Part shown: in pieces, positions 793 to 6,812 of the stretch
Layout of the letters: every line of letters starts with the position of its first letter
Position numbering within the stretch: position 1 is the first letter of the stretch
Assembly: GCA_023475035.1 (NCBI GenBank)
Contig: JAMCXF010000008.1
Coordinates: 2,643-37,089 of the forward strand
Source: Candidatus Pacearchaeota archaeon
GTDB lineage: Archaea > Nanobdellota > Nanobdellia > Pacearchaeales > GW2011-AR1
DNA length: 34,447 nucleotides
Direction of reading: 5' to 3'
Program-made: the position numbers and the translations under genes
Notes under the pieces: model-generated
Seen by the model: the letters and a program-made list of their open reading frames with translations, nothing else
Told to the model about the DNA's origin: nothing
Databases searched by the model: none

Positions 793-1311
793 TTATTCTT
801 TCTTTTGTTTTCTTTCTTTTAACCCTAAATCCAGAATTGGTTTTTCCTGGTGTTTCTCAAGGTGGCTGTAAACATTTGCCTGTTTTGCTCCCTGCACTAT
901 TGAAATGACTGCGTCCTGTGCTTTCTTCATATTTTCAGGAGAACCTATAATTCCTACTTCATTATTGTTCATTTCAAAAAAGCATTCTGTCAATTGACTT
1001 AGTGTTCTCAGGGTTTTTCCTCCTGTTCCAATTATTCTTGCTCTAATTGTTCCAAAATCTTTTCTGTGCGTGTAATCTTTTATATTCAGGATTTCAAAAA
1101 GAAAATCCTCGCTTTTTATTAGTAATGCAACAGGCGGGCGAAATCCAAACTGAATAGCGTCGATAACTTTTCCCGCGATGTATTCATTTTCAGGTTTTCC
1201 TTCTAAAGATATGCCTTCGTCATTGACAATTATTTTTACATTAAGTATTCTTTCAAGTTTTTTCTTGATTTTTATTATCTTTTCAGTATTTTCAGAAGTG
1301 TTTATTATCAT
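793..1311 (-). CDS. KH-domain RNA-binding ribosome biogenesis protein (Pno1/Dim2/Krr1 family)
   Basis: RARIIGTGGKT KH GxxG loop, AIQFGF, and C-terminal GAKQANVYSHLE; adjacent to aIF1A as is typical in archaea. Confidence 0.9.
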   Translation of the reverse strand: MIINTSENTEKIIKIKKKLERILNVKIIVNDEGISLEGKPENEYIAGKVIDAIQFGFRPPVALLIKSEDFLFEILNIKDYTHRKDFGTIRARIIGTGGKTLRTLSQLTECFFEMNNNEVGIIGSPENMKKAQDAVISIVQGAKQANVYSHLEKHQEKPILDLGLKERKQKKE

Positions 1312-1335: not shown

Positions 1336-1686
1336 TTAAAACTCGCTTTTCTCTGTCTTGAGATAGCCGTTTTTCTTCAGCCATTCAACCTGATTTGGCT
1401 TGTATTTCAGGATTACGTCTCCTTTATCTTTGTCAAGTTCCCAAGGCTCTACAATCACAACATCGCCAGGACGAAGCCAAAGTTTTCTTTTCAATCGCCC
1501 AGGAACTCTTGAATTTCTTACTTTTCCGTCAGAGCAGTTTACAAGCATTTTGTTCCCTCCAAGCCTTTGTTCTATAACCCCTATTACTTCCTCTCCTTTT
1601 GGCAATGGAGCACGGCTAACAACCTGCTGTTCGCTTTCGGGTTCGTCTTCTGTTGCATTAATATCCTGAAATTCTTCTTCCACCAT
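1336..1686 (-). CDS. eif1a: Translation initiation factor aIF-1A
   Basis: GVIEQRLGGNKMLVNCSDGKVRNSRVPGRLKRKLWLRPGDVVIVEPWE is the eIF1A OB-fold signature. Confidence 0.97.
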   Translation of the reverse strand: MVEEEFQDINATEDEPESEQQVVSRAPLPKGEEVIGVIEQRLGGNKMLVNCSDGKVRNSRVPGRLKRKLWLRPGDVVIVEPWELDKDKGDVILKYKPNQVEWLKKNGYLKTEKSEF

Positions 1687-1721: not shown

Positions 1722-2021
1722 TTACAGAAGAACTAGTGCTACGGGAACGCCCTGAATTTCTTTTATTCCTTCCTGACTGATTATGCCTTCTTCAAGTGCA
1801 ATTTTAACAGAATTTTTTCCGACAATATTGAAAGTCGCGTCTTCCCTTACCATATCATTGATTATTCTCCTCACTTCTTCCTCATTTGCTTCTTTCCCTT
1901 TATAGAAATTTTCCTTCACATTTATCTGGAATTTTTCATCTTCGAAAATTTTTCCAAGAATTTCTTTATCGCAGATTGCGACAATATCCCTATAAGATTT
2001 TATAACATTAATGAAATACAT
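1722..2021 (-). CDS. DUF424 family protein
   Basis: IVAICDKEILGK, FYKG, NIVGKNSV and GVP motifs typical of archaeal DUF424. Confidence 0.85.
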   Translation of the reverse strand: MYFINVIKSYRDIVAICDKEILGKIFEDEKFQINVKENFYKGKEANEEEVRRIINDMVREDATFNIVGKNSVKIALEEGIISQEGIKEIQGVPVALVLL

Positions 2022-2055
2022 AAAAATAAGAAAAAAAATTAATTAATAAACTCTC

Positions 2056-2229
2056 TTATTTATTTTTAGCTGCAAAATCTTTTGAAACCACACGCCAGCA
2101 GTCATATGAACCTGTTGGAGACTTTGTAACAGCGAAAGATCTTCCGCTTTTTACTACGATTTTGTAATCGCTTGTTTTGAATTTTTTCTTTGTTTTGACA
2201 TCGAAAAATTCTAAATTTTCTTTTGCCAT
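2056..2229 (-). CDS. Small basic protein (57 aa), CC1-like putative chromatin protein
   Basis: Not in the ORF track. MAKENLEFFDVKTKKKFKTSDYKIVVKSGRSFAVTKSPTGSYDCWRVVSKDFAAKNK, preceded by SD AGGAGGT. Resembles Thermoproteales CC1 as recalled from memory. Confidence 0.8.
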   Translation of the reverse strand: MAKENLEFFDVKTKKKFKTSDYKIVVKSGRSFAVTKSPTGSYDCWRVVSKDFAAKNK

Positions 2230-2244
2230 TTTTACCTCCTTGAT

Positions 2245-2391
2245 TTATTTCTTACCCATCATTCTGCAGACAGTAGTTCCGCATTTAGGGCATCTTCCCT
2301 TCATCATTGTAGTTCCCCTCGCAGTCTTAGTCTCTTTTCCTTCTTTCATTTCGACACTTTGTTTGCATTTTACACAATAAGCTTCAACCAT
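2245..2391 (-). CDS. Small basic zinc-ribbon protein (48 aa), DUF5679-like
   Basis: Not in the ORF track. MVEAYCVKCKQSVEMKEGKETKTARGTTMMKGRCPKCGTTVCRMMGKK, with two CxxC pairs and SD AAGGAGG. Confidence 0.88.
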   Translation of the reverse strand: MVEAYCVKCKQSVEMKEGKETKTARGTTMMKGRCPKCGTTVCRMMGKK

Positions 2392-2500
2392 TTTTCCTCC
2401 TTGTGAATTTAGATATTACAAATTCTATGAATCTGTACATATTTTAAAGATAAATTCTTCTTTTAAACCTTTTGAAAAATATTTAACTCTGAAATATCCG

Positions 2501-2911
2501 TTAAATCTTGCTTCGTACACTATGCTTCGCACCACACGCTAAACATTTTACAAACGCAATCCTGTCTTCTTTGACTAATTCTGTGTCGGGCTTTCCGCAA
2601 TTTTTGCATAAAACAAACTCCTTAACATACTGTTCAACTTTCTGATTTATTTTCGCACTTGGAACATTCATATTAAAGACTAATCTGTCTCCTTCTTTTT
2701 GTCCTGATACTGCCAATTCTCTTAGCAAAAATTTCTGGAAATGTTCGGGATTTCTTCGAATATAATCTGCAATGTGAAAGAAATTTGTCAATATGGTTTT
2801 CTTCCCTTCAAAATGCCCTTCAACTTTAGGAATTTCAAATCTTTCCCCAGAAGTTTCTGGCTTTTTTATCTTGCTGTAAGCTTCATTAAGCAGTTCTTCA
2901 TAATCATTCAT
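2501..2911 (-). CDS. eif2b: Translation initiation factor aIF-2 beta subunit
   Basis: YEELL..AY, ERFEIP, FLLRELA and the C-terminal CKNCGKPDT...CLACGA zinc finger. Confidence 0.97.
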   Translation of the reverse strand: MNDYEELLNEAYSKIKKPETSGERFEIPKVEGHFEGKKTILTNFFHIADYIRRNPEHFQKFLLRELAVSGQKEGDRLVFNMNVPSAKINQKVEQYVKEFVLCKNCGKPDTELVKEDRIAFVKCLACGAKHSVRSKI

Positions 2912-4778: not shown

Positions 4779-6812
4779 TTAACTTCCTGTTCGCTGAATA
4801 AATCCTCTTCTAGGAGAAAAAATTTCCCCTGAACTTTTCAATTTGTCCATTGCTTCATCAATTTCTGCAGGATTCATTTTTCCTTCAAGCTCTTTCTCAA
4901 TTTCTTCCATGGGAATCATTTTTCCTATTTTGTTTTCCAAGTCGATGATTATGTCCCTGACTCCGAGAATCTTGCTTCGCTGCGAGGAAGAAAATCTTCC
5001 TGAAATTCTGTCGATGTCAAAAGTTTTTGATTCGTAATCATAACCAACCTGCATAAGATAATATTTCATAATGTCTATTGCAATTTTAGCATCTTCTCTT
5101 GTGACTTTTTTGCTCAGCCTGACTTTTGCAGATGCCTCTGCCATTCTAATTAATGCCTGCAACTGTCTCGCTGAAATCGGAATCGGACGCAAAGCCCCTT
5201 CAACAGAAACCGGCTTGTTTCTCAATTCAATATAGAAAGTTTTTATCTCTTCTATTGCGTCGTCACTTAATTCAGGTTTTATTCTTTGCTTTGCATAAGC
5301 AACATATTTCCTAAACAACTCTCTAGATATAAGAACTTCAACTCCTTCTTTTCTATGTTCGTGCAAAACATGGTCTGCAATTCTTTCATCTTTCTGCCTG
5401 TCAGGAATATCTCTTAACGTGAAAATTATGTCAAATCTGTTAATCAGCGTCGGAGGCAAATCAATCTGCTGGGCAATTGGCTGGCTTGGGTCAAATCTTC
5501 CGAATTTAGGGTTTGCTGCTGCAAGAACAGATGTTTCTGCTCGCAATGTCGCTTGAACATTCGCTTTTGAAACTGTAATTGTCTGTTGTTCCATTGCTTC
5601 GTGCATCGCACTTCTGTCATTAGGGTCCATTTTTTCCAATTCATCGACGCAAACCAGTCCTTTGTTTGCGAGAACCATTGCTCCTGCTTCTAAACTCCAT
5701 CCTCTCAAATATTCATCTCTTACAACTGTTGCTGTCAGTCCTGCTCCTGATGCTGATTTACCGACGACATATCTTCCTTTTGGAGAAATGTTTGCCATAA
5801 AACCCAATGTAACTGATTTTGCAACTCCTGGGTCTCCTATCAATAAAATGTGAATGTCTCCTCTGCTTTTTTGTCCGTCTCTATGAACTTTCTGAACTCC
5901 GCTGAATAACTGCAAAACCAGGGATTTTTTTATTTCTTCATAACCCCATACACTTGGAGTAATGCTTTTTGCGAGGTTATCAAAAACTCTTGGGTCTTCT
6001 GAAAGTTCAAGAATTTGCCTTTCATCTTCTTCAGAAATGTCAAGCTCTTCAAATGTCTCTTCCATTGGAATGATATTATTTGCTTCAATTGCAAGTTCAA
6101 ATCTCGTCGATAATCCTCCTGTCTGCAATGGGATAGGGACTTCTTTTAAAATTCCTATGACTTTTACTCTGCTTCCAGGAGTTGTTTTCTCCTCCATTCT
6201 TGGTTCTACTAAATCTTCTTTTACAAAAACATTAATTCTTTTCGGCTGTTCTCCTCCTGAAAGAGATTCCGGCGCTTCCTCGACGACTAATCTTTGGGTA
6301 TCAACCATTTCTTTGCTTAACAATTTGAATCCTCCTCTTCTGCCGCAAGAACATCTTGGTGGCTCGCGGAATTTTTTTTCTATTTGAAGAACTGACATAA
6401 CTGTTCCACAGGACGGGCATTCAAATTTTGCATTTACAACCTGAGGACGAACATCTGAAGCCTGACGGATTATTCCTTCAATAACAATCATTTCATTAAG
6501 ATGTTTTGAACGGATATTCCTTACTTTTATCTCCAAACTTTTTGGCAGATTTATAAGCCTGACACGGGCGTTTTTTATCATCCCGATTTCTTCAACAGCA
6601 AGTTCAATTATTCTGAGAACTTCTTCTGGATTTGCAAGGATTTCATCAGAAAGTTTATTTGAAAATTCCGTAAGCTTCATAAATTCAAGGGAAATAACAT
6701 TCATTCCTGTTCTGAGGGATTTCCCCATTTCTTTCTTGTAAAAATCAAAGAACGCTTTAGCTTCAATTATCAAGTCCTCTGTTTTGCTCTTTTGCTCTTT
6801 TTCATCACCCAT
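4779..6812 (-). CDS. mcm: MCM replicative helicase
   Basis: CPSC...CSC zinc motif, HILLIGDPGVAKS Walker A, GLTATV, LEAGAMVLA, VCVDELEKM, AAANPKFGRFD, ISARQL; no intein. Confidence 0.99.
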   Translation of the reverse strand: MGDEKEQKSKTEDLIIEAKAFFDFYKKEMGKSLRTGMNVISLEFMKLTEFSNKLSDEILANPEEVLRIIELAVEEIGMIKNARVRLINLPKSLEIKVRNIRSKHLNEMIVIEGIIRQASDVRPQVVNAKFECPSCGTVMSVLQIEKKFREPPRCSCGRRGGFKLLSKEMVDTQRLVVEEAPESLSGGEQPKRINVFVKEDLVEPRMEEKTTPGSRVKVIGILKEVPIPLQTGGLSTRFELAIEANNIIPMEETFEELDISEEDERQILELSEDPRVFDNLAKSITPSVWGYEEIKKSLVLQLFSGVQKVHRDGQKSRGDIHILLIGDPGVAKSVTLGFMANISPKGRYVVGKSASGAGLTATVVRDEYLRGWSLEAGAMVLANKGLVCVDELEKMDPNDRSAMHEAMEQQTITVSKANVQATLRAETSVLAAANPKFGRFDPSQPIAQQIDLPPTLINRFDIIFTLRDIPDRQKDERIADHVLHEHRKEGVEVLISRELFRKYVAYAKQRIKPELSDDAIEEIKTFYIELRNKPVSVEGALRPIPISARQLQALIRMAEASAKVRLSKKVTREDAKIAIDIMKYYLMQVGYDYESKTFDIDRISGRFSSSQRSKILGVRDIIIDLENKIGKMIPMEEIEKELEGKMNPAEIDEAMDKLKSSGEIFSPRRGFIQRTGS

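Follow-up and report, generated by a model that had tools for sequence, protein, structure and literature searches.

A DUF5679 zinc ribbon and a zinc-free CC1-like protein encoded in tandem in a Pacearchaeota genome: probable interchangeable members of one superfamily

Results

Two small genes in tandem between translation genes

The window analyzed here is a stretch of 34,447 nucleotides (nt) of DNA from a Candidatus Pacearchaeota archaeon (GenBank assembly GCA_023475035.1, contig JAMCXF010000008.1, positions 2,643 to 37,089 of the forward strand). It carries two very small genes in tandem: the first encodes a 48-amino-acid (aa) zinc-ribbon protein of the DUF5679 family, and the second encodes a 57-aa zinc-free protein that resembles the crenarchaeal DNA-binding protein CC1. 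The features of the locus are listed in Table 1. A preliminary description of this DNA had reported two small basic open reading frames (ORFs) of 48 and 57 aa, 15 nt apart and each with AGGAGG, in a DPANN-like archaeon. Both ORFs are present on the minus strand, with isoelectric points (pI) of 9.62 and 9.89, and the assignment to a DPANN-like archaeon agrees with the names of the relatives (Woesearchaeota, Pacearchaeota, and Nanoarchaeota) and with the source assembly, which is 573 kb in 42 contigs and 83% complete.

Table 1. Features of the DUF5679/CC1-like locus (positions in the window)
Feature	Position	Strand	Basis or remark
48-aa DUF5679 zinc-ribbon gene, first of the pair	2245..2391	-	ORF; PF18930; four Cys; pI 9.62
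57-aa zinc-free CC1-like gene, second of the pair	2056..2229	-	ORF; pI 9.89
GGAGG Shine-Dalgarno core before the 48-aa gene	2396..2400	-	Read from sequence
GGAGG Shine-Dalgarno core before the 57-aa gene, in the 15-nt spacer	2235..2239	-	Read from sequence
TATA-box-like TTTAAAATA, 49-57 nt before the 48-aa ATG, possible own promoter of the pair	2440..2448	-	Sequence
Eight-T run after the 57-aa stop, possible archaeal terminator	2031..2038	-	Sequence
Translation initiation factor 2 beta (eIF2beta), upstream flank	2501..2911	-	PF01873, E 1.6e-35; flank kept in relatives
DUF424 protein, downstream flank	1722..2021	-	PF04242, E 8e-19; flank kept in relatives
aIF1A, further conserved neighbor	1336..1686	-	PF01176, E 2.2e-18; synteny
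KH-domain protein, further conserved neighbor	793..1311	-	PF21800, E 1.3e-10; synteny
OB-fold protein, 208 aa	3553..4179	-	PF01336
MCM	4779..6812	-	600 nt beyond the OB-fold gene

The spacer between the 48-aa stop codon and the 57-aa ATG contains AAGGAGG, and a second AAGGAGG lies 5 nt upstream of the ATG of the 48-aa ORF. In the window as a whole, GGAGG is unusual at this place: of 40 crude long ORFs (at least 90 aa, ATG start), only 2 have it in the 20 nt before the start. Among relatives with parsable starts (loci L002 to L053), it precedes 13 of 17 CC1-like genes and 27 of 34 DUF5679 genes, and a strong ribosome-binding site is therefore a conserved trait of both. Because of these strong sites, both products are probably made in large amounts. 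The TATA-like element and the eight-T run suggest that the pair may be a transcription unit of its own, and the two genes appear to be cotranscribed behind one apparent promoter region.

The 57-aa protein is a homologue of CC1

The 57-aa protein (6.5 kDa) has no Pfam or NCBIfam match at an E value of ≤1 and does not reach the gathering cutoff of PF18930. A direct search found 111 relatives at an E value of ≤0.01 among 114 candidates, most of them 64 to 96% identical to it. The profile of this family matches 294 clusters (50% identity) at an E value of ≤0.001 among 1.84 billion representatives, and one of its matches there, P0299 (E = 3.1e-8), is 78 to 93% identical to Pyrobaculum and Thermoproteus proteins that carry the NCBI name "DNA-binding protein CC1." Direct comparisons agree: the alignment of the 57-aa family with true CC1 by hhalign has a probability of 98.6% and an E value of 5.6e-16, and BLASTP of the 57-aa protein against the true CC1 protein P0356 gives 41% identity over 54 aa (E = 4e-12). 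Based on these profile and pairwise alignments, we conclude that the homology of the 57-aa ORF to CC1 extends over its full length, and that the likeness to CC1 noted in the preliminary description is real homology. The true CC1 proteins P0356, P0353, and P0299 match no NCBIfam family themselves, and Hocher et al. state that no hidden Markov model (HMM) existed for CC1.

The 57-aa protein resembles the CC1 proteins of Thermoproteus and Pyrobaculum in size and charge (57 aa and pI 9.9 versus 56 aa and pI 10.0) and in having a β-rich fold, which is predicted here and described in the literature for CC1. It differs from them in several respects. It is encoded in a mesophile-type DPANN genome and has relatives in Omnitrophota bacteria; its family has a C-terminal helix and a near-invariant Cys-Trp, both of which CC1 lacks, and is without the TARG-type insertion of CC1; and its gene is single copy and lies in a conserved slot flanked by translation genes, whereas CC1 is multicopy and located elsewhere in the genome. 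No gene for eIF2beta, DUF424, aIF1A, or the KH protein lies within 3 kb of true CC1 in any of 51 loci (BLASTP, E ≤ 1e-3), and therefore this slot is not common to the Thermoproteales.

Within the true CC1 loci (L054 to L104), three loci each were seen in P. oguniense TE7, Pyrobaculum sp. WP30, and Thermoproteus sp. CP80, and relatives at 52 to 60% identity occur in metagenome-assembled genomes of Desulfurococcales and Sulfolobales. The Omnitrophota proteins P0046, P0061, and P0107 are 64 to 80% identical to the archaeal 57-aa protein, and one of them is encoded on a 1.43-Mb contig; this similarity suggests a recent transfer between domains. In the ESM Atlas, the clusters nearest to the 57-aa protein are unnamed and bacterial (WWE3, Chloroflexota, and Bacteroidota). 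The cluster at rank 11 has 17% DUF5679 members (score, 0.89), which we regard as a lead only. CC1-like domains also occur as fusions (among P0240, P0227, P0234, P0267, P0179, and P0295): with a TIR domain (E = 1.4e-25), with N-terminal membrane helices and long lysine-rich C-terminal tails, and with an N-terminal coiled coil.

The 48-aa protein is a DUF5679 zinc ribbon

The 48-aa protein matches PF18930 (DUF5679) with 45.3 bits against a cutoff of 27 (E = 9.8e-12), over profile positions 1 to 40 of 40. Its two CxxC knuckles give the ligand pattern CCCC, which is the same in 116 of the 127 family members examined, so the earlier reading of this ORF as DUF5679-like with two CxxC pairs holds. The search found 44 relatives at an E value of ≤0.01 among 45 candidates, and public records list the relatives of both proteins as "hypothetical protein" or "DUF5679 domain-containing protein." There is no match to PF00935 (eL42/L44e) at an E value of ≤1; against PDB chains, the 48-aa family profile matches L44e with an E value of 0.45 and over the knuckle only. 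DUF5679 has no described function, and the full-text matches to the family name that were listed concern unrelated topics.

The remaining 11 of the 127 genes have lost ligands: seven have lost one, and four have lost three (pattern SACT). The four SACT proteins (L172, L188, L191, and L195) keep the long C-terminal helix of the family, and two of their genes (L191 and L195) are still in the slot between eIF2beta and DUF424. From their sequences, the SACT proteins look like natural intermediates towards a zinc-free form. In one genome (G016, locus L125), two DUF5679 genes lie in tandem on the same strand, which is a duplication of the ribbon.

The two genes are mostly mutually exclusive and occupy the same slots

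We examined 151 genomes of the order and a phylum sample of 121 genomes. In the order sample, 6 genomes have both genes, 16 have only the CC1-like gene, 119 have only DUF5679, and 10 have neither; thus, 141 of the 151 have one or both, the CC1-like gene is present in 22 (with the narrow and the broad profile alike), and DUF5679 is present in 125. In the phylum sample, the corresponding counts are 2, 6, 73, and 40. DUF5679 is a single-copy gene, found in 75 of the phylum-sample genomes. In five genera, the CC1-like gene is present and DUF5679 is absent from every sampled genome.

The two genes also share their locations. When the 126 DUF5679 loci of the order sample were annotated with iterated HMMs, 75 had DUF5679 alone in the slot eIF2beta-X-DUF424-aIF1A-KH, 4 had the tandem of both genes in that slot (the locus described here and L005, L008, and L010), 25 had DUF5679 directly followed by a histone-fold gene, and 22 had other contexts. 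Of the 22 CC1-like loci, 12 have the gene alone in the same slot, the same 4 have the tandem, 3 have it directly upstream of a class II tRNA synthetase gene, and 3 have it elsewhere. Three DUF5679 loci likewise have the gene directly upstream of a homologous class II tRNA synthetase gene; the synthetases found beside the two genes are 35% identical (E = 5e-79). In the genus of the window itself, three genomes have the tandem, and in three others DUF424 comes immediately after DUF5679, which leaves no space for a remnant.

Because the distribution is near exclusive and the slots are common to both genes, we conclude that the two proteins are probably functional equivalents, with one role that either of them can fill, and they do not look like two obligate partners. 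This goes against the proposal of the preliminary description that the pair may be a heteromer acting as a two-component chromatin system. The arrangement at this locus would suit such a system, in that only 15 nt separate the two genes, which share a strand and each have a strong ribosome-binding site, and the same tandem recurs in three other genomes. However, the pair occurs in only 4 of the 22 CC1-like and 4 of the 126 DUF5679 loci, 16 of the 22 genomes with the CC1-like gene lack DUF5679, 119 of the 125 with DUF5679 lack the CC1-like gene, three congeneric genomes leave no space for a remnant between DUF5679 and DUF424, and a review calls the CC1 of Thermoproteus tenax monomeric (PMC4200833). 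We consider an obligate heteromer very improbable.

A second arrangement that would use both proteins is a zinc-sparing backup, in which the ribbon serves when zinc is plentiful and the zinc-free paralogue serves when zinc is scarce. The pair does combine a zinc ribbon with a zinc-free protein of the same predicted fold, a pattern like that of zinc-bearing and zinc-free bacterial ribosomal paralogues. But the 15-nt spacer is too short for a separately regulated promoter or operator, the genes appear to be cotranscribed, and most genomes keep only one of the two. A zinc-dependent switch is thus improbable as well, and exchange of one protein for the other accounts better for the distribution.

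DUF5679 and the CC1 family as one probable superfamily

Exchange between equivalents does not by itself require common descent, and we compared the two families by profile alignment, using for the CC1 superfamily an alignment of 50 sequences. DUF5679 aligns with the 57-aa family at an hhalign E value of 0.0032 (probability, 9.9%), with true CC1 at 0.0045 (7.7%), and with the CC1 superfamily at 8.8e-4 (23%; collinear over ~50 columns); the DUF5679 core columns align with the CC1 superfamily at 2.9e-4 (40%). All of these alignments run collinearly and reach nominal significance, but their probabilities are low. As a control, the columns of the DUF5679 core were shuffled 200 times with the composition kept. 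The observed score against the CC1 superfamily is 21.8, and none of the 200 shuffles reaches it (mean, 7.7; standard deviation, 1.7; maximum, 16.95); the reversed profile scores 5.4.

HMM cross-matches were tested on 5,883 stop-to-stop ORFs from the 126 loci, which come from AT-rich, lysine-rich genomes. The 57-aa family HMM matches four-Cys DUF5679 proteins at E values of 1.7e-6 and 1.2e-4, and the true-CC1 HMM matches several DUF5679 proteins at 0.002 to 0.01, including the 48-aa protein of the window at 0.0058. Nearly all of the nonself matches of the CC1-family HMMs under an E value of 1 are DUF5679 proteins. In an alignment with few gaps, CVKCK of DUF5679 stands over DVKTK of the 57-aa protein, DIKAK of CC1, and SVKAK of an eroded DUF5679 protein, while CPKCG of DUF5679 stands over SPTG and SPYTG. 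One DUF5679 protein and one CC1-like protein have the tail SKDQAAKLK in common.

The 57-aa protein is thus collinear with the DUF5679 family, is found in the same genomic slots, and has hairpin and C-terminal motifs in common with it, but it has none of the four Cys ligands and falls below every Pfam threshold. One alternative is that the two families are unrelated and have converged on a small β topology and a lysine-rich composition under similar selection for nucleic acid binding, with the shared slot reflecting displacement by an unrelated analogue. This is consistent with hhalign probabilities of only 7.7 to 40%, with the lack of any Pfam cross-match at an E value of ≤1, and with the known convergence between small zinc ribbons and SH3-like barrels (Kaur et al. 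2018, PMC5906684). Such convergence would not be expected to leave all composition-keeping shuffles short of the observed score, or to give cross-matches that are specific to DUF5679 among so many lysine-rich ORFs. Residues between and beside the ligand positions are conserved, a C-terminal tail is held in common, partly ligand-free forms of DUF5679 exist, and Cren7, a protein of the same fold and charge, gives far lower scores with either family (see below). We therefore regard convergence as unlikely. Taken together, the hhalign scores and shuffles, the HMM cross-matches, the ligand erosion, and the alignment make it likely that DUF5679 and the CC1 family share common descent, and they lend plausibility to the earlier suggestion that zinc-binding and zinc-free relatives sit side by side at this locus.

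Predicted folds and comparison with Cren7

The AlphaFold2 model of the 57-aa protein has five strands and a short C-terminal helix (pLDDT, 90.6), and that of the 48-aa protein has five strands (pLDDT, 83.0). When the models were compared with 48,161 PDB chains, one chain from a Cren7-DNA complex, 4r55_A, came first for both, with a score of 6.2 at 2.6 Å over 53 of 53 residues for the 57-aa model and 4.5 at 2.2 Å over 46 residues for the 48-aa model. Both predicted models are thus five-stranded barrels of the Cren7 type. Foldseek found no match in the PDB at an E value of ≤0.001 for either model, and no relative of solved structure came up when the two proteins and the two family profiles were searched against PDB sequences. 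The CC1-superfamily profile did match the PDB entries "Cake" and "Scone," but we rejected these matches as spurious: the proteins are designed propellers in which a 12-residue stretch is repeated nine times, with ~3 bits for each repeat.

The match to Cren7, the best for either model, spans nearly all residues, but neither protein belongs to Cren7 by sequence. Neither matches PF11520 (Cren7) at an E value of ≤1, and in hhalign comparisons with five Cren7 sequences the CC1 superfamily reaches only 1.9% probability (E = 0.026; score, 13.9 over 16 columns) and DUF5679 only an E value of 0.8 (score, 6.6). Kaur et al. (2018, PMC5906684) derive Cren7 and Sul7, which are crenarchaeal proteins, from zinc ribbons, Cren7 by ligand loss; CC1 is named there once, in the conclusions. 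Loss of ligands from DUF5679 on the way to CC1 would be a parallel case, and the CC1/DUF5679 pair looks like a ribbon-to-barrel transition separate from that of Cren7.

Histone and Alba genes

In 25 of the 126 DUF5679 loci (L033, L042, L047, L049, L051, L113, L118, L123, L127, L128, L130 to L132, L137 to L139, L142, L153, L167, L177, L183, L185, and L198 to L200), which belong to other families of the same order, DUF5679 is followed, a few to ~130 nt away, by a co-oriented gene for a 54- to 55-aa histone-fold protein without helix α3. Five of these histone-fold genes were scanned: three pass the cutoff of PF00808, one passes that of DUF1931, and one is just below. They fit the α3-truncated histones described by Schwab et al. 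(2024), and their link to DUF5679 contrasts with the statement in that work that the genes of these α3 histones are single-gene operons.

The preliminary description had asked whether this genome encodes histone or Alba. Neither was found in its 83%-complete assembly, and the 65-aa histone of the congeners was not found either. It is not safe to conclude from this that the genome is without histone and Alba, since a histone-fold match is present in 5 of 5 congeners, where it is a truncated histone of 61 to 65 aa whose gene neighbors that of a class II tRNA synthetase. This synthetase has only 27 to 36% identical matches in the assembly studied here; because both the histone and the synthetase counterpart are missing, the region is probably unassembled rather than lost. 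Alba is present in 19 of 41 genomes of the family sample and is patchy.

Discussion

We propose that the two proteins are interchangeable small basic nucleic acid-binding proteins of one old superfamily, in which the zinc-free form displaces the ribbon; we assign this reading a probability of about 0.6. The locus would then be a short two-gene unit for two very small, basic, five-stranded β proteins, the first a DUF5679 ribbon with two CxxC knuckles and the second a zinc-free member of the CC1 family that would have come to carry D, T, S, and T or G where the ribbon has its four ligands. In place of the metal, the zinc-free protein would rely on the hydrophobic packing of a Cren7-like barrel and on its short C-terminal helix. 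Both proteins would bind nucleic acid without sequence preference through a lysine-rich first hairpin and an aromatic-Arg motif in the last strand. The zinc-free form would have displaced the ribbon in several genera, and this genome and a few of its kin would have kept both.

That both proteins bind nucleic acid nonspecifically is likely in our judgment, and DNA in the nucleoid is slightly favored as the target. A review describes T. tenax CC1 as an abundant, monomeric 6-kDa protein that binds DNA in single- and double-stranded form (PMC4200833), and the T. tenax genome paper considered it a possible single-strand-binding protein. We also count in favor of nucleic acid binding that the best match of either model is a chain from a Cren7-DNA complex and that CC1-like domains are found fused to a TIR domain, to membrane anchors, and to long lysine-rich tails. 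Together with the 25 loci in which DUF5679 is paired with a histone-fold gene, this published biochemistry makes a role in chromatin plausible.

RNA and translation are the less probable target. On this alternative, both proteins would be translation or ribosome biogenesis factors (RNA chaperones or loosely bound ribosome partners) and not nucleoid proteins, and they would mirror the pairs of zinc-bearing and zinc-free paralogues that are known among small ribosomal proteins, including bacterial ones. The genomic context is what speaks for it: eIF2beta and DUF424-aIF1A-KH flank the gene in 79 of the 126 DUF5679 loci and in 16 of the 22 CC1-like loci, and in a further 3 loci of each kind the next gene downstream is that of a class II tRNA synthetase. 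In addition, the review cited above calls the cellular role of CC1 not elucidated (PMC4200833). The same context also contains replication genes, though, with the OB-fold protein, an AAA ATPase, and MCM further upstream of eIF2beta in the window, so that the neighborhood is one of general information processing. The OB-fold gene is kept next to eIF2beta in many relatives, where replication and translation genes are likewise mixed. The histone-paired DUF5679 loci and the absence of translation genes from the surroundings of true CC1 also count against an RNA role. The CC1-superfamily profile, which includes CC1 of Pyrobaculum calidifontis, matches no PDB chain once the designed propellers are set aside, although the ribosome entries of that species are among the structures searched, and the genome studied here has a separate, weak L44e-like match elsewhere. 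As with ribosomal-protein paralogues, zinc ligands have been lost repeatedly within one family of small proteins, which also shows duplication, loss in particular lineages, and probable gene transfer; the difference is that, as far as the PDB profile searches reach, this pair are not ribosomal proteins. On balance, we regard a role in translation or with RNA as the less probable of the two, but as a serious alternative.

Several observations weigh against our proposal of interchangeable nucleic acid-binding proteins. The function is transferred from a protein of hyperthermophiles that is only 41% identical, and both folds, like the high expression, are predictions. The commonest neighbors are genes of translation (eIF2beta, aIF1A, KH, and tRNA synthetase) and not of chromatin, and eIF2beta, aIF1A, and KH are not found around true CC1 in any of the 51 loci. 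Finally, 40 of the 121 phylum-sample genomes have neither gene, and the sampled genomes are kin, so that the independent events behind the exclusive pattern are fewer than the genome counts.

CC1 and DUF5679 are each already on record. We found no link between them in the full-text literature searched, where CC1 and zinc ribbons come together only in Kaur et al. (2018) and its preprint. The literature searched also yielded no report of CC1 relatives in DPANN archaea or bacteria, some of which may be listed in Supplementary Table 1 of Hocher et al. (2022), and none of the DUF5679-histone gene pair, which may appear in the supplementary gene cluster figures of Schwab et al. (2024).

A wider and more tentative proposal, to which we give less than even odds, is that DUF5679 and its zinc-free CC1-like offshoot are a major unrecognized nucleoid-protein family of DPANN archaea of the Nanoarchaeota type and of some ultrasmall bacteria, often acting beside truncated (α3) histones, whose genes come directly after it in 25 loci, with crenarchaeal CC1 as only one zinc-free branch. 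If this is true, small β-barrel chromatin proteins would have arisen from zinc ribbons at least twice, as Cren7 and as CC1. The review cited above describes CC1 as a protein of "a few Crenarchaea" (PMC4200833); in the comparisons presented here, it is a single branch of a far larger family with members in DPANN archaea and in bacteria. These comparisons suggest for it an origin that parallels that of Cren7, from a DUF5679 zinc ribbon that lost its metal site, and they give DUF5679 a testable function.

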